A DNA stretch of 64,000 bases, from the IMG/VR virus record IMGVR_UViG_3300029505_000002. The stretch is one strand, 5' to 3'. Source of the stretch: a virus. Taxonomy: Duplodnaviria; Heunggongvirae; Uroviricota; Caudoviricetes. A program made the translations under genes and the position numbers. Shown in pieces: positions 4,779-54,321 of the stretch. The notes beneath the pieces were generated by a model, which made no database searches, was not told the origin of the DNA, and saw only the letters and a program-made list of their open reading frames with translations. Within the stretch, counting starts at the first letter, position 1; every line of letters begins with the position of its first letter.

Positions 4779-6986
4779 CTAGTCACATTTACTATATCCA
4801 CAACTATGACATGTATAACATCCGCCTTCTGGAGATAATTCCATACCACATATTGGACATTCTAATTTGTTATTTGGTTTTGTTTGTATTTTTATTTTAT
4901 TCTCTTTTGATTTTTTTTCAATTCTAGGTATAGATATTGTATCTTTTTGCATTTCTTGTTGAAGGTCTAAAACCATCTTTAATAAAATATTAGGACAATT
5001 TTTACCAGTAATTTCTACTCCTCTAGTTCTAGCTAATGTACAAGATGAACAAGCGTCTATTCCTAAAAATGATTTCTGAATATCTGCAAGATTTCCTCCA
5101 AGTCTTAAAACTTGAGAAATAAGAATTGCTTCACCTTGGATATTTTTTGAACATCCGCCTTGCCCTTTCGCTATGTAATATATATCAGTTACTCTATTTT
5201 CCGAAGGGCTAAATCCTATCATAACCTTTGCTCTTCCACAACCATTAATCATATCTCTTGGTATATAAATTGTATCAGCAGGAACTTTATCCATTATTCC
5301 TCTAGGGATTTCAATTTCTTCTTTCTTTTTATTAGGATTAACTTCGTTAAGCACTCCTTCTATTGAACCATCAACATATACGGTTAATCCTTTTACACCT
5401 TGTTGCCACCCATAAATATATAGTTTTTTAATATCTTCAACTGTAGCCTCTTCTTTGAAGTTAGTAGTATTAGATATTGATAGGTCTACATATTTTTGCC
5501 AAGCAGAAATTACATCAACTTTTTCTTCGACAGATACATCTCTAGTATCTATGCAATAATCAGGTTTATATCCAAATTTGTCTATAATATCTTGTATTGG
5601 CTTATGAAATACTTCATAATAAGTATTTGTATTGTTTAAACTTTCTGTCTTTCTTGTATAAGACATTCTGAAAATAGGCTCTATTCCAGTAGATATATTT
5701 AGGAGTAGACTTATACTACCTGCTGGAGCAATACTTAATAAAGAATTGTTTCTTAATCCTTTTATATAAGGAACACCTAATTCTTCCATTCTTTTTTCAT
5801 CTTCAAGTATTCCTTCTGGTTGTCCATATAATTGACCTAAATATTGAGATTCTTTTATTGCTTTATCTCTCATAAGTTTAGCTATTTCTTCAGATAATTC
5901 TACAGATTCTTCACTTCCATATCTAATTCCAAGTTTCATAAACATGTCTGCTAGCCCCATTATCCCTAAACCTATTCCTCTATATTTTTCAGCTCTATCA
6001 TTTTGAATTTGTAAACCATTTTTTCCTATTCCATAATCATGAGCTTTATCTAGTGCAAATATTGCTGTTTTTACATCTTCTCCAAATGTTTCGAAATCAA
6101 AGAAAGAGTGACCAAATTCTTCTTTTACATAAGCTGACAAATTCATAGATCCTAATAAACATACAGTGCCTTTAACTCCTATAAATTCACTACAAGCATT
6201 ATTAAATAATTCTTTATCATTGTATATACTGCCAAAAAGATGATTTTCTCTATATCTATCTACAAATAATATACCTGGCTCAAAAGCTGTTTTAGGAGTA
6301 TCAACAATTGCATTCATTATTGCAACTGTATCAACAGTATGAGGAATAACTTCTCCAGTAGCTTCTACTATAAAATCTTTTTGATAAGATTCTCCTTTCA
6401 TATAATGTTCCATAAATTCATCTGTTATTAAAACTGAAAGGTTTGCTGATGTTATTTCTCCTCCATCACCCTTGTTCCCTTTTTTGATTTTGATAAAGTC
6501 CATAATATCAGGATGATCACAATGTAATCCAGCAAGCATTGCTCCTCTTCTTGCCCCACCTCTTTTTACATTTTCTGTTACAGAGTTAAATATTTTTAAA
6601 AAACCTATAACTCCATCAGATTTATGGTGTCCACCTATACTAGCTCCTTTAGGTCTTATTTTAGATAAAGCAACTCCAACACCAGCTTCTTTTTTATAAG
6701 AAATAGCTAGATTTTTAGCAGTATCCATTATATCATCTAAAGAATCTTCTACATAAGAAAATGTTGTACAATTTGAAAGTCCTTGTCCATTATCTGTGTT
6801 TAGATTAGCAAGTATTCTCCCACCATATAAGAACTTTTTATCTAATATTAATTGCTTTACTTTTTCTTCTCCGTTACTGATTCTTTCTATCCATTCATCA
6901 AAACTTTCATTATTAAATCTATATTTTTTATTCCATACATCTATAGATAGTTTATTATCTTCTCCAAGCCATTCTTGTACTGTCAT
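4779..6986 (-). CDS. ribonucleotide reductase catalytic subunit (class II NrdJ-like, C-terminal Zn ribbon)
   Basis: 735 aa with an RNR barrel region and active-site-like N-x-C-x-E (NACSEF); C-terminal CPICG...CYTCHSCG zinc ribbon; no small subunit (NrdB) gene in the window. Confidence 0.7.
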   Translation of the reverse strand: MTVQEWLGEDNKLSIDVWNKKYRFNNESFDEWIERISNGEEKVKQLILDKKFLYGGRILANLNTDNGQGLSNCTTFSYVEDSLDDIMDTAKNLAISYKKEAGVGVALSKIRPKGASIGGHHKSDGVIGFLKIFNSVTENVKRGGARRGAMLAGLHCDHPDIMDFIKIKKGNKGDGGEITSANLSVLITDEFMEHYMKGESYQKDFIVEATGEVIPHTVDTVAIMNAIVDTPKTAFEPGILFVDRYRENHLFGSIYNDKELFNNACSEFIGVKGTVCLLGSMNLSAYVKEEFGHSFFDFETFGEDVKTAIFALDKAHDYGIGKNGLQIQNDRAEKYRGIGLGIMGLADMFMKLGIRYGSEESVELSEEIAKLMRDKAIKESQYLGQLYGQPEGILEDEKRMEELGVPYIKGLRNNSLLSIAPAGSISLLLNISTGIEPIFRMSYTRKTESLNNTNTYYEVFHKPIQDIIDKFGYKPDYCIDTRDVSVEEKVDVISAWQKYVDLSISNTTNFKEEATVEDIKKLYIYGWQQGVKGLTVYVDGSIEGVLNEVNPNKKKEEIEIPRGIMDKVPADTIYIPRDMINGCGRAKVMIGFSPSENRVTDIYYIAKGQGGCSKNIQGEAILISQVLRLGGNLADIQKSFLGIDACSSCTLARTRGVEITGKNCPNILLKMVLDLQQEMQKDTISIPRIEKKSKENKIKIQTKPNNKLECPICGMELSPEGGCYTCHSCGYSKCD

Positions 6987-7162: not shown

Positions 7163-7642
7163 TTATACCTCCATAGAATTAAATTCTCTCTCTATACAAT
7201 ACATAGAATAAGTACTTAATTGATTAGTTTTATACAAATCTAAAGCTTGTTCATAAGTAATATATTGCTTTTCATTATATATAATAGAATCCATTATATT
7301 AGAATCTATTGTATTTAAAGCTCTACTATAATCTTTATATTTAATACATATAATATTACCCAAGGATAATATTCCGTCTTTTAAGTATACTCCTCTTGTT
7401 GTTTCTATGTAGTCTGTAATCATAGGAACAATATTAAATTCTTGTTCAAGAATTGGATTTAAAAAATAAGTAACACTTTGTGATTCATCTATTGGTGTGC
7501 ATGGTAAAGTATATTGGTTAAAATAAGGTGTTTTACAAATTAAAAATTTACCTTCTGAATTTCTATATAATGCCATTGCTATTGAATCTTTTTGAAGTTT
7601 TTGAGCAACTTCATAAATATCACCTACTGCCATTCTTTTCAC
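7163..7642 (-). CDS. hypothetical protein
   Basis: 159-aa ORF with a TATAAT-like -10 upstream. Confidence 0.45.
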   Translation of the reverse strand: MKRMAVGDIYEVAQKLQKDSIAMALYRNSEGKFLICKTPYFNQYTLPCTPIDESQSVTYFLNPILEQEFNIVPMITDYIETTRGVYLKDGILSLGNIICIKYKDYSRALNTIDSNIMDSIIYNEKQYITYEQALDLYKTNQLSTYSMYCIEREFNSMEV

Positions 7643-7667
7643 CTCATTTCTTTTTTTTATAGTATAA

Positions 7668-7690
7668 TTATATTAGCATTAAAAAAGGTT
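7668..7690 (-). terminator. rho-independent terminator
   Basis: ggttgagttcgattactcaacc stem-loop preceded by an A-run (T-run on the minus strand) after the stop of 7699..8217. Confidence 0.5.
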
Positions 7691-7698
7691 GAGTTCGA

Positions 7699-8217
7699 TT
7701 ACTCAACCAATTTCTTCACACTTTGATAATAAGCATATACTCTTTCTCTAGTTCTTTCTGCATCTTTAATAAAGGTATCTACAAAATCAAAATCTGTTTT
7801 AATATCATTTTTTTCAAGTTCTAAATTTATTAGTTGTTCTTTAACAGCTTTCTTTTTTGCTTCTTCTTTTTCTCCTTTTGTTTTAGATTCTATTACTGCT
7901 TCAAGAAATTCTACACTTTTTTCAACTTTTATTTTTTCAAGATCATATTTTTTATTAATTGTATCACTTTTAATTTTTACATATAATCTTAATTGTTCAA
8001 GCCAACCTAACATTTTATCAGCTTTTTCTATAAAATCTATACAATCATCTAATGCTTTTGGATTTACACCTTGTAGTGTAGATATATCTTGAAGTCTAGT
8101 TCTATTTTCTATTTGAGTTTCGTATAAGTCTATGTTATGTTTTATTCCATCTCTTTTTTTCTCATCAGAAATGTATTTTTCTAATATAATTTTAAGAACT
8201 GAACTTCCTTTTAACAT
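7699..8217 (-). CDS. hypothetical coiled-coil protein
   Basis: 172-aa ORF, K/E-rich heptad-like sequence. Confidence 0.45.
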   Translation of the reverse strand: MLKGSSVLKIILEKYISDEKKRDGIKHNIDLYETQIENRTRLQDISTLQGVNPKALDDCIDFIEKADKMLGWLEQLRLYVKIKSDTINKKYDLEKIKVEKSVEFLEAVIESKTKGEKEEAKKKAVKEQLINLELEKNDIKTDFDFVDTFIKDAERTRERVYAYYQSVKKLVE

Positions 8218-11328: not shown

Positions 11329-11698
11329 TTCCTTTTTCTAATATTTCTAATATTCCAGCTTGTTCAAAGATGTCTAAAAGTTCTGATAAGCTTGGAAAAT
11401 CTTGATCACTAAATCTTATAAGTTTAATTTTTCCTAAGGTGTTGAATAGTTCTCTTTCAACATCATTTTTTTTATATTTTAAAAGTTGTTCAGTAGTTTT
11501 GAAAAAGAAGCCATCAGCTTTATCTATAGCGTGTTGGCTTCCATCACATTCAATTACAACTGGAGGAAAAGAGGTAAAATAAAAATCATACCTCTTATTT
11601 CCTTCTACCAATTCTTCTATAAGTTCAACATTATAAGATTTAGATATTTTCTTCAAAAGTTTATTCATATGTATTTGAGCTTTAGATAGCATTTTCAT
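11225..11698 (-). CDS. hypothetical protein with basic C-terminus
   Basis: 157-aa ORF; 104-nt overlap with the RuvC-like ORF suggests one of the two starts is mis-set. Confidence 0.4.
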   Translation of the reverse strand: MKMLSKAQIHMNKLLKKISKSYNVELIEELVEGNKRYDFYFTSFPPVVIECDGSQHAIDKADGFFFKTTEQLLKYKKNDVERELFNTLGKIKLIRFSDQDFPSLSELLDIFEQAGILEILEKGNDEDNANYQRIKYAEEQNRRRREQNKEFRKKLKR

Positions 11699-12839
11699 AT
11701 CCTTCTAATGTAGTTGGATCTATTTCTTCTAAAATACCACTCAACGAATCTATTAATACACTTATAGATTTAAAATCATCATAAGTCCATTTATAGCTTT
11801 TATTATTCTTTAACATAGATAAAGACATAATTACTGTACTTGCTTTTTCTATATAAGGAGTAACAGATTTTTCTGTTTTTACAGATTCTTTTATTTCTTC
11901 ATTTATTTTATCTTGTTCAGCTAAATCTTCTATTATATCATTAGCTTCACTTTGAATTTCAGGATATTCTCTATTACTATAATCAGCAATACCATTTCTA
12001 TCTATAACATCTTCTGAGTCTATTTTTTCAAATTGGTCAAAATATTCTTTTTTATCTTTAGCTTCAAGTGAATCCATATAAGTTTCATCAGCCTCTTGTT
12101 GTCTTTTTCTTTCTACTAAAACTTCATCAAAATCTTTTCCCTCTTTGAAATATTTAATAGCTTCTCTTAAATCATTTCTAGATAGTGAAGCGTATTTGTT
12201 ATAGAACTGTTTTAAAATAATTTTAGATTCTTCTGTTACACTTCCTGGGATTTCTTGTAAATGAATTACTAAAGAATAAAGCTCATCTATAGTACCAGTT
12301 TGTTTAATTGTTACTTCATCGTCTTCTAATATTTCTTTATGGAACAATACCCAGTTGAATAAACTTCTAGCTCTTCTAGGATCTATTTTACATTTCTTTA
12401 TAAAAGATACAAGACTTGTTGTGGGAGCTAATTTAATTGCTTTTACATACATATTATAAATCCAGTTAGCAATATCATATTCACTTAATCTTTCTCCATG
12501 ATTTACATTTTCATTAAAAGCATCTGTTTCCAAAGCTTCCATAGAATTATATTCTGTAATGTAAGCTTTAATGCTTTCTAATTCTAATGCTCTTGCCGCA
12601 GCAAATCTATGATATCCATCTACTATAATAATTTTTCCATCAAATAACCCTAAATGAATTTCTGGAAACATTCCTTCTGAAGCTACTAATTTATCAACAT
12701 TGTCCATATTTAATCCTCTTCTTGGATTAATATTAATTTCGTCACTAATAGCATCTAATTTTACATCACATATTTTCTTATCATTAATTGTTGAAATTTC
12801 CATTTCATTTACTTCCATTCCTTTTTCAATTGTTATCAT
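11682..12839 (-). CDS. ParB-like nuclease domain protein
   Basis: IIIVDGYHRFAAARAL resembles the ParB/Srx fold signature DG.HR..A. Confidence 0.55.
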   Translation of the reverse strand: MITIEKGMEVNEMEISTINDKKICDVKLDAISDEININPRRGLNMDNVDKLVASEGMFPEIHLGLFDGKIIIVDGYHRFAAARALELESIKAYITEYNSMEALETDAFNENVNHGERLSEYDIANWIYNMYVKAIKLAPTTSLVSFIKKCKIDPRRARSLFNWVLFHKEILEDDEVTIKQTGTIDELYSLVIHLQEIPGSVTEESKIILKQFYNKYASLSRNDLREAIKYFKEGKDFDEVLVERKRQQEADETYMDSLEAKDKKEYFDQFEKIDSEDVIDRNGIADYSNREYPEIQSEANDIIEDLAEQDKINEEIKESVKTEKSVTPYIEKASTVIMSLSMLKNNKSYKWTYDDFKSISVLIDSLSGILEEIDPTTLEGYENAI

Positions 12840-36646: not shown

Positions 36647-37450
36647 TTAGTCAAAAATTATTTCATCATTATTTTCACGATCGCTAACATAACAATTTGT
36701 TGTTACTAAATGTTTCAAATTGTTTTCTATAATATCATGAGTATTATTTGCTCTTGATATATGTAAAGTAATTATATTTTTAACATCTACACCTTTTTCT
36801 TTCATATAATTAAAAAATTTAATAGCTTCCGAATTTGATAAATGACCAAATTTACTTAAAGTTCTTAATTTGTTAGAACAATGTCTATCACTATTCATTA
36901 ACATTTCTTCATCATGATTTAGTTCTATAATAAAATTATTGCATTTCATTGCTTCTTTTTTAATAGCATTTGAAATGAATCCACAATCAGTAAGATAAAG
37001 AGTGTTTCCATTTATTCTAAAACCTAATGTCTTATGAGCATCATGGTAAGATGTAAATGGATAAAAAGTTAAATCTTTAATAGTAAATTCTTCATTTTCT
37101 TTTATTAAAACAAATTCAGCTTTATATTCTTCAGATTTTCTTCTATCTATATAAGAAAGTCTTTTTTCTTTTCTTTCCTCTTCTCCTATTAAATGTTTTT
37201 CATGTAAATAAATAGGAATATTTTTTTCCATAGCTAATCTGCCAGTCCATTTATTAAAATGATCTGTATGTTCATGAGTTATAACTATACCATCAAAAGT
37301 AACTTCTTGCATAATTTCCTCTAAACATTCTTGCATTTTAGTTTTACTTTTAAATCCTGCATCTATTAACACATTAGTATCTTTATGGTTAATCCATACA
37401 CAGTTCCCATCACTACCTGTTTGGATTACTTTAATCTTCACTTTTATCAC
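36647..37450 (-). CDS. metallo-beta-lactamase-fold hydrolase
   Basis: VLIDAGF... then ITHEHTDH (HxHxDH zinc motif). Confidence 0.6.
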   Translation of the reverse strand: MIKVKIKVIQTGSDGNCVWINHKDTNVLIDAGFKSKTKMQECLEEIMQEVTFDGIVITHEHTDHFNKWTGRLAMEKNIPIYLHEKHLIGEEERKEKRLSYIDRRKSEEYKAEFVLIKENEEFTIKDLTFYPFTSYHDAHKTLGFRINGNTLYLTDCGFISNAIKKEAMKCNNFIIELNHDEEMLMNSDRHCSNKLRTLSKFGHLSNSEAIKFFNYMKEKGVDVKNIITLHISRANNTHDIIENNLKHLVTTNCYVSDRENNDEIIFD

Positions 37451-45396: not shown

Positions 45397-46500
45397 ATGA
45401 AGAAAGTAGATTTAATTTATGACCCTAATTTTCCACCTAATACCACTCTTGTAAAAGACTTTCCAGGTGTGGTTAGGAAAAAAGGAGAACAATTAAAAAC
45501 TTTAATTGATGAAATAGAATTGAATAGAACTTCTTCCTCTATAGCTAATGCAAAAAAGACATTCGATTATAATATGGTATTTATAACTGAAAATTCAGAA
45601 ATACCTAATGGAATGTATTTAAATGATAAAACTAATAATTATTGGGTAGGTTGTAGTGATTTTTCTACTTTACCTTCTAATACAGATACATTAGATATAG
45701 GAACAAGAATTACTATTTATAATAAAACTTATGAACTTAGAGAAGTTGATGGAATTAAAATATGGTGTCAAACATTTGGTTTAAAACCAAAATTATTCTT
45801 TGACTTTTTTGAATTTGTTAAAGAAGATACTGTGTTAACTAATAAAGGATTTGGCAATTCAGATATTACTTTAACAATTAACAATGCTGAAAGAAAAGAA
45901 CCTTTGTTACCTTATATAACTACTAAGCAACAAAATAAAATAATTACTAATATGTCTTATATCAACGACAAAACATTTACATTAACTGCAACTTTTAAAA
46001 ATATTAAAAGAAGTTTTGAAGATAATACTGTTATAGATATAAATCACAAATCAGTAATATATCATATCAAAGATGAATTTGCTAATATACATACTGGTAT
46101 TTGTTATGATAAAAGTAATAATTTATTTTATTTTGTAGGAGAAGAGGTATTTCCTATAGGTATATTCTTATCTGAAAATAAGATATATCAAATAACACTT
46201 CAATATATTAATAAGAAGCTAAATTTAATTATTGATAACGAACTTATCAAAACATTTGAATTAGATCTTGATGGATTGAAGTTATTATTTGCAGTAGGAA
46301 ATGATAATATGTTTGGTAGATATGCTACAGGTTCTTTTGAAGTAGCAGATTTAACTTTATTTAAAGAAGTGTTAACAAAAGAAGAAATTATGTGGTTATA
46401 TGTAAATCCTAGAAACTGGACTTTTTATACACATAATTCTTATCTTGATTTATCATTAGAAGAAAAAATTAAGTTAAAAAAACTATTAAAAGAAGATTAA
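45397..46500 (+). CDS. hypothetical protein with C-terminal LamG/concanavalin-like jelly-roll
   Basis: only sizeable plus-strand gene in the central region; GGAGGG RBS; C-terminal LKLLFAVGNDNMFGRYATGSFEVADLTLFKEVLTKEEIMWLY is typical of LamG-like lectin folds. Confidence 0.45.
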   Translation: MKKVDLIYDPNFPPNTTLVKDFPGVVRKKGEQLKTLIDEIELNRTSSSIANAKKTFDYNMVFITENSEIPNGMYLNDKTNNYWVGCSDFSTLPSNTDTLDIGTRITIYNKTYELREVDGIKIWCQTFGLKPKLFFDFFEFVKEDTVLTNKGFGNSDITLTINNAERKEPLLPYITTKQQNKIITNMSYINDKTFTLTATFKNIKRSFEDNTVIDINHKSVIYHIKDEFANIHTGICYDKSNNLFYFVGEEVFPIGIFLSENKIYQITLQYINKKLNLIIDNELIKTFELDLDGLKLLFAVGNDNMFGRYATGSFEVADLTLFKEVLTKEEIMWLYVNPRNWTFYTHNSYLDLSLEEKIKLKKLLKED

Positions 46501-46502
46501 AA

Positions 46503-46516
46503 TTCCGCATGCGGAA
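46503..46516. repeat. copy 4 of palindrome TTCCGCATGCGGAA (plus orientation), immediately after the stop of the plus-strand gene
   Basis: identical 14-mer at 46503..46516. Confidence 0.7.
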
Positions 46517-46526
46517 AAATGAATTA

Positions 46527-46550
46527 GGCAGGTATTAACCTGCCTTTTTA
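46527..46550. terminator. bidirectional terminator between convergent genes
   Basis: aggcaggtattaacctgccttttt hairpin followed by a T-run. Confidence 0.55.
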
Positions 46551-47959
46551 ATTGTATGTGCTTTAACTCTTTTATCGCTATAACCTTCAATAATACCTTC
46601 TTCCATATTTCTTTCAGTAAGTACAAAATCATATTGAACTATATTATTAGGTATATCTCTTTCGTAACTAAAATATCCATCTGTGATGTTTATAACTCCT
46701 ATATATTGATTTTTATAAAAATCTTTTATCCATTCATGAAGATAGGAAACATCAGTTCCTCCAGATGAATGAACTTTGAATTTTAACAAATCTTTTATAT
46801 CTTTAATATTCTGATGATAATGTTTTTCTTCAACTTTACAAGATGACCAATATACAACATCTAATACAGTTGTATTTTTGTTTTTAGATAAAAAACCATT
46901 TAGCATTTCGTAACATTTCTTAAGTTCTTCATCACCTATCGAACCTGATACATCTACTGCAACAAGAATCTTTTTACCAAATTCTTTAGTTTTTCCTTTA
47001 AACACAACTTTATTAGATTGACGTGTTCTACTTGCTCTCTTATAAGATTTAACATAAGTTTGAGCTATTTCTTTGCTTATTATTCTTTTTAAATCTAACA
47101 AATTTAAAAAATCATCTTTTTTAGTAATTCTTTCTTTATGTCTAATAATATTACCTTCTGAACTTGAATAATTTACACTAGATGATATTTCTCTTTCGAT
47201 ATTATTTATTTTAGAACTCATAATAGAATCTAAATCATCTTTTGAAAGTTTAGCAGATTTTCCATTTGAATCTTGTTCATTCTTTTTGTTAAAATCAGAA
47301 ACTGATTGATTAGACATTTCTTCAGATGCATTATGATCATCTATACAGTTACCCAAACTATAATTATTAACTTCTTGTAATTTATCACAATTGTCTAAAA
47401 ACCATTTAAATAATTTAGGTTCTGGTGGAGCATCATTCAGATCAGAAAAGGGTAATTGTTTGCCTGCTATTTTAGTTAAATTATCATAATTAATTAAATC
47501 TATTTTATACTTAGAAAAGTTATTTGAATTAATGTTTAACATTTCAAATAACATAGAGTTACAATAATAATCTTCAACTATATTAGCTAATTGAGGACTT
47601 ATCTTAGTTTCTTGTTTCATTCTTTCAAAATGATAAAAATAGTTATGTAATAATTCATGGAATATGACAAATAATAATTCTTTATCATCAAAACCATATT
47701 CTGCTACTTTGTTAAAATTGATAACTATTTTAATTCTTTCATTTACATAATCAGGATAAGTATATGCTAAAGCTTCTTTGTGTTTTTCATCTACATTTTC
47801 TATATCACATATTGTTAACAACATATTAATAAAAAAAGGATATGTTTTAGAATTAAATAATATTAATTTATTCAACAAATCATTTACTTCAAGATGATTG
47901 TTTGGATTAGCTTCATATACTTTTCCTCCCATTTTTAAAGAAATTTTCATTTCATTCAC
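46535..47959 (-). CDS. vWA-domain protein with N-terminal HExxH metallopeptidase-like domain
   Basis: FHELLHNYF (HExxH) in the N-terminal half; LVAVDVSGSIGDEE is a MIDAS DxSxS motif of von Willebrand A domains. Confidence 0.6.
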   Translation of the reverse strand: MNEMKISLKMGGKVYEANPNNHLEVNDLLNKLILFNSKTYPFFINMLLTICDIENVDEKHKEALAYTYPDYVNERIKIVINFNKVAEYGFDDKELLFVIFHELLHNYFYHFERMKQETKISPQLANIVEDYYCNSMLFEMLNINSNNFSKYKIDLINYDNLTKIAGKQLPFSDLNDAPPEPKLFKWFLDNCDKLQEVNNYSLGNCIDDHNASEEMSNQSVSDFNKKNEQDSNGKSAKLSKDDLDSIMSSKINNIEREISSSVNYSSSEGNIIRHKERITKKDDFLNLLDLKRIISKEIAQTYVKSYKRASRTRQSNKVVFKGKTKEFGKKILVAVDVSGSIGDEELKKCYEMLNGFLSKNKNTTVLDVVYWSSCKVEEKHYHQNIKDIKDLLKFKVHSSGGTDVSYLHEWIKDFYKNQYIGVINITDGYFSYERDIPNNIVQYDFVLTERNMEEGIIEGYSDKRVKAHTIKKAG

Positions 47960-48182
47960 TCCCTATATTTTTTAAATATTCATAATCAGCATTTAATTGT
48001 TTTTTATATTTTTCTTTATAAGTAAAATCAGCCACCTGCATATATTTGTATATACAGGTAGCTACTTTTTTACTTAGTTCTTTATCAAATAGATATTCAT
48101 GATCTTGATAAAGATTTAACATATTAGAATTTTTCTTTTCTATAACAAAATGATTATTCTTAAATCCATATTGATAATACAT
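47952..48182 (-). CDS. hypothetical small protein between the vWA and AAA genes
   Basis: 76-aa ORF with overlapping stop/start to neighbours. Confidence 0.4.
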   Translation of the reverse strand: MYYQYGFKNNHFVIEKKNSNMLNLYQDHEYLFDKELSKKVATCIYKYMQVADFTYKEKYKKQLNADYEYLKNIGSE

Positions 48183-48184
48183 GA

Positions 48185-49495
48185 TTATCTACCGCTGTTT
48201 GCTAATCTAATTCCTTCTGCAAAGTTATCAAAAACTTTCTTTAGTTTTTTATCAGTTTTGCTTCCTTTAACACCAGCTTTGTAAATATAGTTCGCAAAAT
48301 TAGTTTTCTTTTCTCTAGCAACAGATTCAGAAAATTGTTCCTCAAAAGCTTTATTCATTTCATTAAAGAAAGCAGCAAGCATAGCTTCATTGTTAACAAA
48401 TAGTTTAAATATTTTATCAGCATATTTTTCTGCATATTTAAAATCTTTAAGAATATTGTCTTTTACTAAATATTTAGTTCTAATTAATATTTCTCTTTCT
48501 TTTCCTTTAATATCAAATGGATGTCCTTGTCTATCTTTAACTACATAATCTGGTGTTGTTAGTCCTTCGTTATCAACAATTTCTTTTTGTAAATCTAATG
48601 TATTAACTTGTTCTAATAAAGTAAGTTTATCAGTAATAGCTTTTAAAGTTCTATCAGTAAAGAAATAAGAACCAAATAATACAGCATCAGTTTTACAGTT
48701 ATTATATGTCATAGGTATTTTTTCAATTAATTCCATATCTTTCCATCTATTGTTAAGAAGATTCCAAGAACCAAGTTGAGAATCTTGTTCTAATTCCTTA
48801 ACAGCTTCGTGATCAATTATTTTATTCATATCAAGTAAATCAACTAAATCTCTAATTACTGGATGATAATTCTTTTCTTCCATGAATTTTTGAATATCTT
48901 CTTTGTTTGGAACCCATTCAATAAATATTTGTCTTCTTCTAAGAGCTGAGTCAGAGAAATCTATATTACTTATGTAAGAATCGCCATAGTTAATAGCCGT
49001 CATAATGTATAAATTCTTAGCAATTACACCATCTAATCTCTTTTCAAGAAGTCCAAATAATAAAGGTGCAATATCTGCAGAACTTCTCGCATATTCATCG
49101 CAGAAAAGAAGATATTTTTTATCTGGATTTTCTAAAATTTCTTTAAAAATTCCAATGTTGGCAAACTCTACAGATTTATTTATCTTCTTGTATCCAGTTT
49201 CTAAGTTTAACAAAGTTTCTTCTGATTTCTTTCTTCCTGTTTTTACGTCTGTTTCATCAACTATAATAGGTAATCTAAAATCTTCAGCTGCCATTCCTTG
49301 CATTCTAAGAGTTACAAACTTGTCGATTCCTAATCTTGAGTCTTTTGCTATTTCTTCTACTAGAGTTGTTTTTCCTGATCCTGAAGGCCCTAATAAAGTA
49401 ATTGTAGTATAAGGTAACATTCTAACTATCTCTCTAACTAATACATCTTTTCCATCATTAATAATAATTTGTCCATATTGTCCTTTCATTGCCAT
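48185..49495 (-). CDS. MoxR-like AAA+ ATPase (AAA_5 / CbbQ / CobS-like)
   Basis: Walker A LLGPSGSGKTTL; Walker B LLFCDEYARS; sensor-1-like MTAINYG; immediately upstream of the vWA partner. Confidence 0.65.
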   Translation of the reverse strand: MAMKGQYGQIIINDGKDVLVREIVRMLPYTTITLLGPSGSGKTTLVEEIAKDSRLGIDKFVTLRMQGMAAEDFRLPIIVDETDVKTGRKKSEETLLNLETGYKKINKSVEFANIGIFKEILENPDKKYLLFCDEYARSSADIAPLLFGLLEKRLDGVIAKNLYIMTAINYGDSYISNIDFSDSALRRRQIFIEWVPNKEDIQKFMEEKNYHPVIRDLVDLLDMNKIIDHEAVKELEQDSQLGSWNLLNNRWKDMELIEKIPMTYNNCKTDAVLFGSYFFTDRTLKAITDKLTLLEQVNTLDLQKEIVDNEGLTTPDYVVKDRQGHPFDIKGKEREILIRTKYLVKDNILKDFKYAEKYADKIFKLFVNNEAMLAAFFNEMNKAFEEQFSESVAREKKTNFANYIYKAGVKGSKTDKKLKKVFDNFAEGIRLANSGR

Positions 49496-49579
49496 AACAT
49501 ATCACTCCTTTTAATTTAATTTATTTTTATTATATTTTGTTTAAGGCATTTCAAAAAATTAGTAATAAAAAAAGACAGT

Positions 49580-49939
49580 TTATTTTGCACTGTCTTTGCT
49601 TATTGTTAAAAATTCAGCTTTAAATTTTCTAAGTATATCCTCAAATGTTCTTTCAAATTCATATATTACAAACAAAGTTGCTGTTTTAGTATGATATCCT
49701 TGATATTGTTGATTATTTACAAGATTTCTCATACTTCTATGTATACACCAGATTATATTTGTTGACTTATGATTATCAAACATATATTCATGAGGTCCTA
49801 CTTCTGTAGCAGATTTATCTAAATCCAAATATTCATTCATAGCAAATTTTCCTTTATAGAATTTAATTCCTGCTTTTTTCTTTCCTTCTATAACGCTTGG
49901 TACTAGCCAATATGTGTTGCCTTTTCTATAAATTTTCAT
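49580..49939 (-). CDS. hypothetical protein
   Basis: 119-aa ORF. Confidence 0.4.
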   Translation of the reverse strand: MKIYRKGNTYWLVPSVIEGKKKAGIKFYKGKFAMNEYLDLDKSATEVGPHEYMFDNHKSTNIIWCIHRSMRNLVNNQQYQGYHTKTATLFVIYEFERTFEDILRKFKAEFLTISKDSAK

Positions 49940-51065: not shown

Positions 51066-51165
51066 TTGATACTCCCAACGAATGAATTCGTGGGATTCTC
51101 GGGTAGTAGAACCTTTTGTTAGCATTCTAAATTTACCGAGCTCAGAAGGGCTATCCTACCCTCTA
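51040..51165 (-). ncRNA. candidate TnpB omega-RNA / IS right-end structured region
   Basis: GC-richer segment overlapping and following the TnpB 3' end: cccaacgaatgaattcgtggg inverted repeat, gggtagtagaacc, ccgagctcagaagggctatcctaccc; IS605-family omega-RNAs derive from the tnpB 3' end plus the right end. Confidence 0.4.
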
Positions 51166-52323
51166 GTGTATTTTTCTTCCTTCTACTAAAATGTTAATAG
51201 AAGCATTTAAATCTCTATCATGTTCTTCTCCACATTGTGGACATACCCATTTTCTTATACTTGTATCTTTTACAAGTGCATTTTGATAACCACACGCAGA
51301 ACATATTTGACTACTAGCATAATATTGATTTATCTGTACAACATTTCTACCATACATTTTACCTTTATTATTTAGCATTATTACAAATGTTCCAAATGCT
51401 GAATCCATTATCGCTTTAGAAATACGTTTATCTTTAGACATTTCTTTTACATCTAAACTTTCTAAACAAATTAATTGGTTTTCTTGAATTAGTTTAGTTG
51501 ATAGTTTATGTAAAAAGTCTTTTCTTATATTAGCTATTCTTTCATGTAATAAAGCTATTTGTAGTTTTAGTTTTTTATATCTATTACTTTTTCTATCTTT
51601 CTTTTTAGATAGTTTTCTTTGTAATTTTTTCAATCTAGCTATATTTTTCCACATTGGTTTCGGAGCTTTAAATTCTTGTCCATCAGAACAAACAGCAAAT
51701 GTTTTTAATCCTAAGTCAATACCTATTTCTTTTGTAACTGGTTGTAATTTACTAGTGGTTTCATCAACACAAAAAGAAATAAAGTATTTTTCAGTAGGAG
51801 TTTTAGATATAGTAGCAGAAAGAATTTTTCCATTAAACTTTCTAGACCAAATTATATCTACTAATCCTACTTTTGGAATCAAAACTTGATTACCTTTAAT
51901 TTTACAAGTAGTTGTTTTGTAACTAGCTTTAGGATTATTTTTACTTTTAAACTTAGGATGAGCTTCGCTGTCTATAATTGTTGGTTTTTTATTTTTTCTT
52001 TTTAAACGTTCTACAACTTTAGAAGAATATCTAACTCCATTTTCCTTTACAAATTCAAACCAATTCTTATAAGTACTTTCTAATTGTTTCAAAGTTTGTT
52101 GCAACGCAGTAGAATCAACTTCGTTTAAGAAGGTATCTGATTTTTTAATTTGAGTTAATAAAGCTGACATTTTGTTATAATTTAACTTTTCTCCAAATTC
52201 TTTAAAACGAAATTCTTTTAAAGCTAAAAAGCCATTCCAAACATATCTACAGCAATTGAATGTTTTATCGATAATTTCTTGTTGTTCTTTTGTTGGGTAG
52301 ATTCTATATTTATATCCTTTCAA
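51163..52323 (-). CDS. tnpB: TnpB (IS200/IS605-family OrfB; RuvC-like RNA-guided nuclease)
   Basis: N-terminal MKGYKYRIYPTKEQ is a hallmark of OrfB/TnpB; C-terminal Zn finger CSACG...CPQCG; RuvC-III-like DRDLNASINIL. Confidence 0.8.
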   Translation of the reverse strand: MKGYKYRIYPTKEQQEIIDKTFNCCRYVWNGFLALKEFRFKEFGEKLNYNKMSALLTQIKKSDTFLNEVDSTALQQTLKQLESTYKNWFEFVKENGVRYSSKVVERLKRKNKKPTIIDSEAHPKFKSKNNPKASYKTTTCKIKGNQVLIPKVGLVDIIWSRKFNGKILSATISKTPTEKYFISFCVDETTSKLQPVTKEIGIDLGLKTFAVCSDGQEFKAPKPMWKNIARLKKLQRKLSKKKDRKSNRYKKLKLQIALLHERIANIRKDFLHKLSTKLIQENQLICLESLDVKEMSKDKRISKAIMDSAFGTFVIMLNNKGKMYGRNVVQINQYYASSQICSACGYQNALVKDTSIRKWVCPQCGEEHDRDLNASINILVEGRKIH

Positions 52324-53502: not shown

Positions 53503-54321
53503 TTATTCACTCCCTCTTTTTTTTCTTTGTTTAGTTATTCCTATTCTTTTCATTACTTCTTTACAAAAAGATTCATAATCTCTTCCAACATTAGATTTAG
53601 GTTTATATTCAAATATTGATTGATTACACGCTATTGCTTCAATCATAGTAACACTTTGTCTAATTGTAGAAGCCATCAAAACATCTCCAAATATATTTTT
53701 TAATTCGTTAGATATCTCTTTGCTTATTACACTTCTTTCATCATAAAGTGTTAAGAATACTCCACCCATTTGTAAATTTTCATTAAATGTTAATTTTATT
53801 GTTTCTATACTTTCTGCTAATACTGTAGAACCACTTAATTCAAATATACCAGCTTTAACTGGAATAAATACATAATTAGAAGCAACAAGAGCATTTATCG
53901 TAAGTGTTCCTAGGTTAGGAGAACAGTCAATTACACAAACATCATAAAATTTACCAGCATCTAAAAGTACTTTCTTTAATAAGTTTTCTTTTCCTAGCTC
54001 AGAAGAAAAATTGATATTTGCTCTTTCCAAAGTAAGGTTAGAAGGTAACAAATCTATGTTTTCTTTTATATTTATAAGATATTTAGTTAACTGTTTATCA
54101 GAGTTTTTATTATTCATTAAAGTATATTCAGACATAATATCATATGCTGTACCTTTCAAAACATTTGGATTAGTTCCGAAAGCAGTAGATAAATTTCCTT
54201 GTGGATCCAAATCTATTCCTAATACTCTTAATCCATTATCACTTAAATAATGAATTAAATTAAACGCTGATGTTGTTTTAGCAACTCCTCCTTTGTTATT
54301 ACACAAACTAATGGTAATCAT
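53503..54321 (-). CDS. parA: ParA/Soj-family partition ATPase
   Basis: deviant Walker A NNKGGVAKTT; DLDPQGN. Confidence 0.8.
   Translation of the reverse strand: MITISLCNNKGGVAKTTSAFNLIHYLSDNGLRVLGIDLDPQGNLSTAFGTNPNVLKGTAYDIMSEYTLMNNKNSDKQLTKYLINIKENIDLLPSNLTLERANINFSSELGKENLLKKVLLDAGKFYDVCVIDCSPNLGTLTINALVASNYVFIPVKAGIFELSGSTVLAESIETIKLTFNENLQMGGVFLTLYDERSVISKEISNELKNIFGDVLMASTIRQSVTMIEAIACNQSIFEYKPKSNVGRDYESFCKEVMKRIGITKQRKKRGSE

Follow-up and report, generated by a model that had tools for sequence, protein, structure and literature searches.

Positions 46535-49495 on the minus strand of the 64,000-nucleotide stretch of tailed-phage DNA analysed here (the window) encode a tightly packed set of a 436-aa AAA+ ATPase, a 76-aa ORF and a 471-aa protein. 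This last protein joins an N-terminal zincin-type metallopeptidase domain to a C-terminal vWA domain with a MIDAS site. The conserved unit is the ATPase together with the zincin-vWA protein, and the reading that we favour, with a probability of roughly 0.55, is that these two proteins would act in early or middle infection as a two-component, AAA+-assisted and MIDAS-targeted metalloprotease, to which the small gene is a lineage-specific accessory. The architecture is already known, and the window provides another instance of a widespread, previously described pair; the novelty implied by the initial annotation was not sustained, as the same architecture corresponds to a Pfam pair, is annotated in phage AR9 and was described for jumbo phages (Iyer et al. 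2021). The carrier is a large phage of a low-GC host, probably of the Fusobacterium type. The coordinates of the features are collected in Table 1.

Table 1. Features of the ATPase/zincin-vWA locus, in positions of the window.
Feature	Position	Strand	Remarks
AAA+ ATPase gene	48185..49495	-	436 aa
Small gene	47952..48182	-	76 aa
Zincin-vWA gene, as first called	46535..47959	-	474 aa from GTG
Zincin-vWA gene, revised start	46535..47950	-	471 aa from ATG 47950; Pfam DUF2201_N and DUF2201
ATPase Walker A, GPSGSGKT	49367-49390	-	
ATPase LRMQGMAAEDFRLP motif	49268-49309	-	
ATPase Walker B, LLFCDE	49094-49111	-	
ATPase arginine cluster, ALRRRQ	48929-48949	-	sensor-1 is N169
Zincin domain, aa 1-296	47063..47950	-	metallopeptidase-type, N-terminal
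HELLHNYFYH	47630-47659	-	zincin domain; H98, E99, H102, H107
NIVEDYYCN	47558-47584	-	zincin domain; N123, D127, N131
Basic linker, aa ~300-325	46976..47053	-	low model confidence; near-invariant Y303 and R308
vWA domain	46538..46975	-	C-terminal
MIDAS D333-x-S335-G-S337	46940-46954	-	
MIDAS T399	46754-46756	-	
MIDAS D424	46679-46681	-	
Shine-Dalgarno of ATPase gene, AGGAG	49505..49509	-	9 nt upstream of ATG; read from sequence
Shine-Dalgarno of zincin-vWA gene, GGGAG	47959..47963	-	lies within the last codons of the small ORF
Terminator-like hairpin	49571..49597	-	9-bp stem, 9-nt loop, U7 run; terminates upstream gene 49580..49939
Terminator-like hairpins between convergent genes	46503..46545		bidirectional, 46526-46545; minus-strand, 46503-46516

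The close linkage of the three minus-strand ORFs was borne out at both junctions. The stop codon TAA of the ATPase gene is followed after 2 nt by the ATG of the small ORF, and the TGA of the small ORF is followed after 1 nt by ATG 47950. The largest gene had been called at 474 aa; the gene itself stands but its length does not, as the true start is almost certainly ATG 47950 and not GTG 47959, because the GTG sits within the Shine-Dalgarno sequence GGGAG, 8 nt upstream of the ATG. The same length of 471 aa is assigned to P0001, a database protein that is 96% identical to the zincin-vWA protein. All three ORFs were confirmed as genuine genes, and not chance reading frames, by their many homologues and by purifying selection (dN/dS of 0.18 for the ATPase, 0.37 for the small gene and 0.17 for the zincin-vWA gene, against the 70%-identical relative L002). 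The 5' boundary of the three-gene unit is marked by the hairpin that terminates the preceding gene (RNA fold of -10.1 kcal/mol, z = -1.97), which the consensus terminator scan skipped as its loop exceeds 8 nt, and the 3' boundary is marked by the hairpins between the convergent genes. Four terminator-like sites were observed by the scan in 7 kb, against 1.1 expected, and a sigma-70 promoter scan was uninformative in DNA of 25% GC (58 sites, 53 expected). On the plus strand, the existence of the convergent gene (45397..46500) was confirmed, and relatives conserve it in the same orientation. Its earlier description as LamG-like found no support in profile searches, with no LamG-type match in Pfam (E up to 0.1), NCBIfam, PHROGs or PADLOC, and no match to the PDB was obtained with the single sequence or with a three-sequence profile.

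The ATPase is a member of the MoxR/McrB/dynein (AAA_5, helix-2-insert) clade. Its profile matches AAA_5, its fold is closest to MoxR, McrB and dynein or midasin modules, and its C-terminal extension (aa ~240-436) is all-helical. The Walker A and Walker B motifs, N169 and R186-R188 are invariant in 36 ATPase sequences. No match to AAA_3 (PF07726, MoxR proper, which has a C-terminal lid domain) was found in the window ATPase or its 36 relatives; this family was matched by three of the ten ATPases adjoining distant phage DUF2201 genes, and those ATPases are homologous to the family of the window ATPase (hhalign E 1e-17). On these profile matches the label 'MoxR-like' is fair; 'MoxR proper' is not supported. 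A McrB-like NxxD GTPase specificity was considered and rejected, the position following N169-x-G being variable in the family. A tblastn search of cultured phages with the ATPase gave no match.

The zincin-vWA protein matches Pfam DUF2201 (PF09967) over aa 332-427 with 27.0 bits (cut-off 26.4), and PHROG 1314 over its full length (E 8e-27). The match of the window protein alone to DUF2201_N (PF13203) was weak (14.7 bits, below the cut-off of 23.2; E 0.023). The protein aligns over its full length with proteins of rV5-like phages and AR9 that are strong members of PF13203, and its homology to DUF2201_N is therefore indirect, through these aligned relatives. Among 72 family members, 66 matched DUF2201 and 29 matched DUF2201_N (best E 8e-27). 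The AF2 model has a pLDDT of 85, falling below 50 at aa 300-311 and 314-325 in the linker, and full-length Foldseek matches were obtained to proteins of PBS1, N4-like phages and the cyanophage S-TIM5.

The HExxH and DVSGS motifs named in the initial annotation are both present. The former belongs to a complete zincin signature, HExxHxxxxH...NxxxDxxxN, of which the HExxHxxxxH motif was found in all 36 IMG/VR loci; H98, E99, H102, H107, N123, D127 and N131 are the sole invariant columns of the domain in 21 diverse viral members. In the model of the domain, the HExxH helix (aa 89-104) is preceded by three beta-strands and followed by more helices. Its profile matches selecase MJ1213 (PDB 4QHF-4QHJ; E 3.7e-6, 30 bits), with weak matches to M48, HtpX, Ste24 and projannalysin. 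The match to selecase spans the strand-plus-HExxH-helix core, and in both proteins a third histidine follows shortly past the motif, 5 residues after HExxH here and 7 in selecase, which is an active, free-standing metallopeptidase of 110 aa. These comparisons support the assignment of the N-terminal half to the zincin-type metallopeptidases, as a homologue of a real metallopeptidase. The minigluzincin scaffold is of about 100 aa, whereas the core here lies in a domain of ~296 aa fused to a vWA domain, and on sequence the domain is best described as a relative of the minigluzincins (selecase, projannalysin, proabylysin) and not as a member. The MIDAS set of the vWA domain is complete, with D333, S335, S337, T399 and D424 invariant. 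The full conservation of the catalytic residues and the intact MIDAS site predict that the protein is catalytically competent. In the literature searched, no functional study or biochemical data were found for the DUF2201/COG3864/PF09967/PF13203 family.

The family comprises about 20,800 cluster representatives, and its members are spread over N4-like, rV5-like, AR9-like and crAss-like phages, cyanophages and many bacteria. A first scan of genome contigs with a single-protein query gave no match. Upstream of the zincin-vWA gene, an AAA+ gene on the same strand was present at 32 of the 36 IMG/VR loci and at 57 of the 68 loci from bacterial and archaeal genomes (GTDB). Comparison by hhalign (99%) showed the two sets of ATPases to be homologous, and the ATPase partner is retained in all close relatives. 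In rV5-like phages a non-ATPase gene directly precedes the homologue, and a MoxR ATPase is encoded 3.6 kb away on the opposite strand; adjacency of the pair is thus frequent but not universal. The HExxHxxxxH motif is universally kept only by the viral members. It is missing from 49 of the 68 cellular homologues, and the pair can therefore evidently work without proteolysis; a non-proteolytic role of the N-domain is possible, since most cellular homologues were found without the motif.

Among known systems, the pair of AR9 and PBS1 is close in organisation: the order is the same (ATPase, then zincin-vWA; 399 and 474 aa), and PF13203 and PF09967, the HExxHxxxxH motif and the DxSGS MIDAS site are shared. 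The PBS1 protein is the best viral structural match to the zincin-vWA protein (E 6.7e-16), AR9 gp029 is 25% identical to it over 423 aa (E 3e-11), and the AR9 pair sits among DNA-metabolism genes. The differences are that the sequences have diverged strongly, with similarity between the AR9 and window ATPases undetectable by BLASTP, that in AR9 the two genes are separated by a 25-nt gap with no small gene, that host phylum and phage lineage differ, and that AR9 alone provides a demonstration of early expression.

In the mechanism that we favour, the three genes would constitute a self-contained phage transcription unit, with the ATPase first, the small gene next and the cognate zincin-vWA partner last. 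The MoxR-class ATPase is expected to form a hexameric ring, and the vWA domain would use its MIDAS metal site to grip an acidic side chain of the target protein and would itself couple to this ring. The vWA-bound target would be pulled on or remodelled through ATP hydrolysis, on the pattern of NorQ/NorD, CbbQ/CbbO and midasin. The remodelled target might then be presented to the zincin protease, or the ATPase might switch the protease on, and the HExxHxxxxH domain would then cut the target. NorQ/NorD, CbbQ/CbbO and midasin likewise combine a MoxR-class ATPase with a MIDAS vWA adaptor in remodelling systems (summarised in PMC7159879), but their adaptors lack a peptidase domain, their targets are remodelled or activated and not cleaved, and the window ATPase differs from their type in its C-terminal helical extension of about 200 aa. 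The operation would resemble that of FtsH or Wss1-Cdc48, divided between two polypeptides. This is a functional analogy only, of a zincin protease (minigluzincin-like in Wss1) with an AAA+ unfoldase, and homology extends no further than the zincin and AAA+ superfamilies: the ATPases of those systems belong to other AAA+ clades, and recruitment is through SUMO/ubiquitin motifs or fusion, not through a MIDAS site. The pair would act within the infected cell, with a protein of the host or the phage as its target, and not in virion maturation.

Action of the pair in early or middle infection is probable, the timing in this phage being taken from genomic position and from AR9: the unit lies among genes for replication, nucleotide metabolism and partition, and transcription of the AR9 homologues is driven by an early promoter. 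Matches in the window include RNR, helicases, a primase-helicase, UvsX, a DNA polymerase, an RNA ligase and ParA/ParB, and no head, tail or packaging family was found among 37 window ORFs scanned with PHROGs (including the 30 largest). The pair lies in the same replication-type context in relatives; phages at 35-76% identity have kept it together with their replication core. As a guide to function, the position of a gene in a phage genome is a soft indicator. The AR9 pair is already expressed at 5 min, whereas AR9 virion genes are late, and has values at 5, 20 and 40 min of 88, 464 and 378 for g028 and 77, 595 and 465 for g029 (PMC5312081). The transfer of this timing to the window is weak, because gp029 is only 25% identical and g028 does not match the window ATPase profile directly.

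This context bears on the most probable of the alternatives, which we nonetheless consider unlikely: that the pair is a virion-assembly chaperone or co-chaperone whose peptidase domain processes structural proteins during maturation. A virion-assembly or processing role was proposed by Iyer et al. (2021; Viruses 13:63) for exactly this architecture in jumbo phages, on the model of the MoxR-vWA pair of Acidianus two-tailed virus. Their group 2.2 pair, compared here by description, has the same architecture and pairing and also belongs to large phages, in that case T4-like phages of Proteobacteria. ORF892 of the Acidianus virus was among the structural matches, at rank 37, and one peptide of a homologous AAA ATPase was reported from a purified preparation of the Staphylococcus jumbo phage DC4, a single-peptide detection that the DC4 authors flag as needing confirmation. 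Against this role stand the location of the pair in a 64-kb block with no recognisable structural gene, the similar context in relatives and the early promoter of the AR9 homologues. Where Iyer et al. (2021) predicted virion assembly, the surroundings of the pair in the window and the data from AR9 favour a non-structural role, early or middle in infection.

A more specific form of the proteolytic reading, quite unlikely as a whole, is that a split, MIDAS-targeted, ATP-dependent protease acts early on DNA-associated or host proteins and that, in the clade of the window, the fast-evolving small protein with its invariant E29 is a MIDAS ligand, serving either as a specificity adaptor or as a pseudo-substrate regulator. 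Nucleoid, defence or covalently trapped proteins would be removed for phage replication, and the pair would be a viral counterpart of Wss1/Spartan-Cdc48. This is compatible with the constant presence of the pair in replication or repair blocks, its early expression in AR9, the relationship of its zincin to minigluzincins and a catalytic motif that is universal only in viral members.

It is improbable that the pair is a chaperone of the NorQ/NorD, CoxD/CoxE, CbbQ/CbbO or CobS/CobT type for metal-cofactor insertion or activation of a phage metalloenzyme such as RNR, in which the HExxH would bind metal without cleaving. The window does encode an RNR large subunit, and many cellular homologues without HExxHxxxxH retain the ATPase partner. 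The RNR gene, however, is about 40 kb from the pair, no metalloenzyme gene was consistently linked to it in the loci inspected, neither the general base E99 nor any other part of the zincin signature varies among the 36 viral loci or within the clade as a whole, the zincin domain is homologous to the active peptidase selecase, and the window proteins matched no CobS, CobT or CoxE family. CobS/CobT, the aerobic cobaltochelatase, is common in cyanophages. What it shares with the present pair is the generic theme of an AAA_5-type ATPase accompanied by a vWA protein, but CobT lacks a zincin domain. Identity with CobS/CobT was rejected in the absence of CobS_N, CobT and CobT_C matches in Pfam and NCBIfam; the matches on that side were at P-loop level (phrog_249, E 0.006, aa 30-51) or non-significant (CobT, E 1.4). 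Neither outcome that the initial annotation had named as contrary to its own reading, an HExxH segment unlike a metallopeptidase or a canonical CobS/CobT pair, was found. Its central claim, of a MoxR-class AAA+ ATPase paired with a vWA/MIDAS protein that bears an N-terminal zincin-type domain, was upheld. Of the resemblance it saw to conflict systems and to CobS/CobT, the generic MoxR-vWA theme remains and the specific likeness does not.

The initial annotation had also proposed a compact three-gene module, which the distribution of the small gene does not support. The small proteins fall into 12 protein clusters, all of them short; the family evolves fast, ranges from 76 to 106 aa and conserves an E-x-E-Y-x-F core, in which E29 and F32 are invariant. 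The gene is confined to one clade of phages of roughly 180-245 kb (present in the window, L002, L004, L045 and L046) and is absent from the Fusobacterium prophage clade and from most of the distant phage and bacterial loci (L006, L008, L011 and L012 among the loci lacking it), where the intergenic gap is at most 160 nt. In other loci, its place between the ATPase and zincin-vWA genes is taken by insertions unrelated to it. The small gene is thus real but is a clade-specific accessory, not a core third component, and its product would be an optional, fast-evolving modulator or adaptor. The possibility that it is instead a core subunit or dedicated substrate of an obligate three-component machine is more doubtful again: its conserved position within the window clade, the purifying selection on it, its tight coupling to its neighbours and the invariant E29, in principle a possible MIDAS ligand, are in favour, and its absences and the unrelated insertions are against. 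An acidic, MIDAS-binding tail was rejected as the primary explanation of the conserved C-terminal Gly-Ser/Gly-Glu of the small protein, because the last codons, GGG AGT GAA, encode the Shine-Dalgarno sequence GGGAG of the zincin-vWA gene.

The least probable reading is a phage-carried conflict system (defence or superinfection exclusion) of the NTP-dependent vWA-MoxR type of Kaur et al. (2020) with the peptidase as effector: this theme does occasionally include metallopeptidase effectors (PMC7159879) and accessory genes are variably inserted beside the pair, but a known defence system was rejected as PADLOC models gave only P-loop-level matches, no VMAP, STAND, FtsH, beta-propeller or other third conserved component was found in neighbouring genes, and the pair is passed on together with the replication core, is found in phages that are strictly lytic, AR9 among them, and in AR9 is expressed early, within the normal programme.

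The ATPase/zincin-vWA pair is among the most widespread phage gene pairs whose predicted role is, so far, a clear biochemical one. The window adds to it a divergent clade, from large phages of the Fusobacteriaceae type, in which the catalytic and MIDAS residues are 100% conserved. Its genomic context, supported by the AR9 transcript data, argues for a part in the early or middle replication programme rather than in virion assembly, the sole role so far proposed in print.

The locus was assigned, from domain and profile comparisons, to a large and already described phage and bacterial family of MoxR-like ATPase plus zincin-vWA pairs, of which it is a divergent member. The sequence reading and domain identification of the initial annotation were correct: three close-packed minus-strand ORFs were found in 46535-49495, as were the quoted HELLHNYFYH and DVSGS motifs.

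Positions of the features discussed
Feature	Position	Strand	Detail
AAA+ ATPase ORF	48185..49495	minus	436 aa
Small ORF	47952..48182	minus	76 aa
Large ORF as first called	46535..47959	minus	474 aa with GTG start
HELLHNYFYH motif	47630-47659		
DVSGS motif	46940-46954		
9-bp hairpin, then U7 run	49571-49597	minus	terminates preceding gene; upstream bracket of unit
Hairpin within the 76-aa ORF	48029-48064	minus	16 pairs including G-U pairs, then T-rich run; terminator scan
Bidirectional hairpin	46526-46545		between unit and convergent plus-strand gene; terminator scan
Second hairpin	46503-46516		between unit and convergent plus-strand gene
Convergent gene	45397-46500	plus	367 aa
TnpB / IS605 OrfB-like gene	51163-52323	minus	386 aa; 1.7 kb upstream of ATPase
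DNA polymerase ORFs (27975-31785)	29149..31785; 27975..29225	minus	878 aa; 416 aa; overlapping
MBL-fold metal-dependent hydrolase	36647-37450	minus	phrog_392
ParA-like gene	53503-54321	minus	phrog_164, E 1e-58
ParB-like gene	11682-12839	minus	

By direct reading, the TAA stop of the ATPase gene is separated by 2 nt from the ATG of the small ORF, which ends in GGG AGT GAA TGA and is followed after 1 nt by an ATG at 47950. As GGGAG (47959-47963) lies 8 nt 5' of this ATG, and a database protein 96% identical to the large protein is called at 471 aa, the large gene most likely starts at 47950, with the GTG forming part of its ribosome-binding site. The strikingly conserved C-terminus of the small protein (G-S/G-E) is most readily accounted for by the Shine-Dalgarno sequence of the following gene, which overlaps it. 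With hairpins at both ends, the trio looks like a self-contained transcription unit; a sigma-70 promoter scan of the locus was uninformative at 25% GC. Purifying selection acts on each of the three genes, with dN/dS values of 0.18 (ATPase), 0.37 (small gene) and 0.17 (large gene) against a relative with 63-76% protein identity. The hairpin within the 76-aa ORF could act as an RNA attenuator separating expression of the ATPase gene from that of the zincin-vWA gene, or could be due to chance.

The N-terminal HExxH segment of the large protein had been read as metallopeptidase-like, and this was supported by a selecase profile match, by DUF2201_N in relatives and by the zincin order of the predicted structure. 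The window protein alone matched DUF2201_N below threshold (E 0.023), while the domain was matched by 29 of 72 relatives (best E 8e-27), and PHROG 1314 covered the protein over its full length (E 8e-27). Alignment across both domains was obtained with 'putative metallopeptidase' proteins of rV5-like phages, which are strong DUF2201_N members, and with gp029 of phage AR9 (25% identity over 423 aa, E 3e-11). Across 21 diverse N-domains of viral proteins, invariance was confined to H98, E99, H102, H107, N123, D127 and N131 (counted from ATG 47950), giving the family signature HExxHxxxxH...NxxxDxxxN. The N-domain profile matched the archaeal metallopeptidase selecase (MJ1213; PDB 4QHF-4QHJ) with an E-value of 3.7e-6. 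Weaker matches were to an M48 peptidase, HtpX, Ste24 and projannalysin. In the alignment with selecase, the family's third histidine falls on its counterpart there, a residue that reportedly serves as the third zinc ligand of that enzyme (López-Pelegrín et al. 2014). An AF2 model (pLDDT 85 overall, >90 over most of the N-domain) presented three strands, the HExxH helix and further helices, which is the order expected of a zincin. The N-terminal domain is thus identified, from profiles and model, as a zincin with a predicted zinc site. A lack of fit to metallopeptidases and a match to CobS/CobT were both checked for, and the outcome favoured this identification; no resemblance to CobS or CobT was detected in domain-family and profile searches of the window proteins. 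Two further conserved elements were observed: a near-invariant histidine, H206, usually within D-D-H (aa 204-206, about 47333-47341) in the helical region that follows the zincin core, and a Y303...R308 motif in the disordered basic linker preceding the vWA domain. Both are candidates for a latency switch, an ATPase-engaged segment or a cleavage segment.

The window ATPase scored barely above the Pfam AAA_5 cut-off (23.3 bits against 22), and AAA_5 was matched by all 36 aligned relatives. Invariant in the alignment were Walker A (GPSGSGKT), Walker B (LLFCDE), the sensor-1 asparagine N169, the ALRRRQ arginine cluster, and a segment, LRxQGxxxEDFRxP, that aligns with 'dlr..l.eptDl.GlP' of MoxR-like ATPases. 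The C-terminal region, of about 200 aa, is helical. Profile-profile comparison with the ATPases beside DUF2201 genes in other phages gave 99% probability (E 1e-17), and part of those ATPases match Pfam AAA_3 (MoxR proper) and bpMoxR. On sequence grounds the protein is thus a divergent representative of the MoxR/McrB/dynein clade, for which the label 'MoxR-like', as distinct from MoxR proper, is justified. GTP specificity of the McrB type is unlikely, as the NxxD position is not conserved in the family.

The description of the locus as a three-gene module held within one clade and failed as a general unit. The closest relative carries a 76-aa homologue of the small protein (63% identity) at the same position, and more distant members of the large-phage clade have proteins of 95-106 aa there. 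The family shares a core of about 47 residues (E-x-E-Y-x-F ... L-x-E-D) and an invariant glutamate, E29, and a database profile search returned only 12 clusters, all of 76-106 aa. No gene separates the pair in the Fusobacterium prophage clade and in most distant loci (gaps of 10-160 nt), and a few loci have unrelated insertions at this point. Because it is confined to one large-phage clade, the small gene is interpreted as a real, clade-specific accessory and not as a third core component. Insertions were also seen to accumulate around the pair in relatives: in the near relative L002 the vWA gene is followed by an LRAT/NlpC-P60-like gene (7485-8201), in locus L010 the pair is separated by a 172-aa ORF (5489-6007), and in locus L045 (2201-4207) a short ATPase ORF (314 aa) adjoins a NUMOD1 homing-endonuclease-like ORF.

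The pair itself is widespread. The family profile recovered 20,807 cluster representatives at E ≤ 1e-3, including 12,531 at E ≤ 1e-10, and most of the best-scoring matches, among the matches listed, span both domains. Among loci with enough upstream sequence, a same-strand AAA+ gene lay upstream in 32 of 36 IMG/VR viral loci (adjacent, within 160 nt, in 22) and in 57 of 68 bacterial and archaeal GTDB loci (adjacent in 55). HExxHxxxxH was kept in all 36 viral loci and in 19 of the GTDB loci, being missing in 49 of 68 in a sample biased by the search patterns used. The protease motif is thus intact in all of these viral versions and appears to be lost from many cellular ones, and there may be a split between catalytic viral and non-catalytic cellular versions. 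Most Bacteroidales and Treponema homologues in the GTDB set (L050-L125; for example L052, L062 and L086) keep the adjacent AAA+ gene and the DxSGS MIDAS site but lack HExxHxxxxH. In a Foldseek search against viral models, the best full-length match was from Bacillus phage PBS1 (E 6.7e-16). Other full-length matches came from N4-like phages of Klebsiella and Ruegeria, from cyanophage S-TIM5 ('Metallopeptidase'), from Pseudomonas phage Zuri and from a crAss-like virus, with ATV ORF892 as a more distant match. The architecture is already known: Iyer et al. 2021 described it for jumbo phages, and a MoxR two-subunit pair had been noted in phage 0305phi8-36 in 2007; no experiment on the family was found in literature searches. 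In rV5-like phages (locus L001, Escherichia phage EmilHeitz, 3681-4670) the DUF2201 homologue is directly preceded by a gene that is annotated 'anti-sigma factor' and has no Pfam match and no P-loop; the MoxR ATPase is encoded on the other strand, at a distance of 3.6 kb. The label 'HNH endonuclease' of PHROG 1314, which holds the rV5-like proteins, looks like a mis-annotation.

The window has a GC content of 23-31% and nearly all of its genes on the minus strand. PHROG and Pfam scans of 37 window ORFs, including the 30 largest, identified ribonucleotide reductase, three helicases, a primase-helicase, a UvsX/RecA-like recombinase, an RNA ligase and a split DNA polymerase, as well as ParA, ParB, an Ant-like regulator, an MBL-fold hydrolase, a FolD-like protein and TnpB; none of these 37 was recognised as encoding a head, tail or packaging protein. 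Close homologues of the large protein were located on 130-245 kb contigs, on 177-180 kb viral contigs of IMG/VR and, as prophages, in chromosomes of Fusobacterium (locus L006 being an F. polymorphum prophage with the pair), under the names Fusobacterium, Cetobacterium and Paraclostridium; no close relative was found among the cultured phages of the collection searched. From this gene content and homologue setting, the window is read as that part of a large uncultivated phage or phage-plasmid which serves replication, nucleotide metabolism and partition. The homologue names and GC content point to a Fusobacteriaceae-type host. The ParA and ParB genes suggest plasmid-like partition of a large phage genome, and in locus L046 ParA is placed as in the window relative to the ATPase-vWA unit. 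The two polymerase ORFs match N-terminal and C-terminal parts of one PHROG, phrog_405, and could reflect a frameshift, a split gene or a sequencing error. The TnpB gene (Pfam OrfB_IS605, Cas12f1-like_TNB and HTH_OrfB_IS605; phrog_506, E 2e-118), beside which no TnpA is visible, is absent from the syntenic position in L002 and L046 and is therefore taken to be an insertion in this phage. The MBL-fold protein may be a cyclic-nucleotide-degrading anti-defence enzyme, since a similarly placed gene in locus L004 (2226-3026) carries Pfam Anti-Pycsar_Apyc1. For the convergent gene, previously called LamG-like, sequence searches of Pfam, NCBIfam, PHROGs, PADLOC and PDB gave no family; it is well conserved (79% identity to L002, 43% to L046; dN/dS 0.11) and in every case faces the zincin-vWA gene in convergent orientation.

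A published proposal (Iyer et al. 2021) holds that the pair serves virion assembly, and one peptide of a homologous ATPase has been reported in a Staphylococcus jumbo-phage particle preparation. Against this, the window and every relative inspected have the pair within the replication block, where its neighbours include primase, RecA, HU, helicase, DNA polymerase III alpha, dUTPase and ParA. The homologous AR9 genes, g028-g029, are driven by an early promoter read by the virion RNA polymerase (transcription start 21888); their expression already stands at 88 and 77 units after 5 min and is highest at 20 min (PMC5312081), whereas the AR9 virion genes are late. Gene position and the analogy with AR9 gp029 (only 25% identical) thus argue, indirectly, for an intracellular early or middle role.

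At the sequence level, the comparisons establish two co-inherited genes, one for an intact AAA+ motor and one for an intact zincin-plus-MIDAS protein, that look co-transcribed. In MoxR-vWA systems, the MIDAS site grips an acidic residue of the target. In midasin, RavA-ViaA, CoxD-CoxE, NorQ-NorD and CbbQ-CbbO, the target is bound by the vWA partner and the mechanical work comes from the ATPase ring (PMC7159879). As the vWA adaptor here additionally bears a protease domain, the pair would be expected to act as a split ATP-dependent protease, along similar lines to FtsH and Wss1-Cdc48; Wss1 has been described as minigluzincin-like. Alternatively, the ATPase might license the zincin protease. The module is not a new kind of system, but it is a good candidate for initial functional work on a module that is very common in phages.
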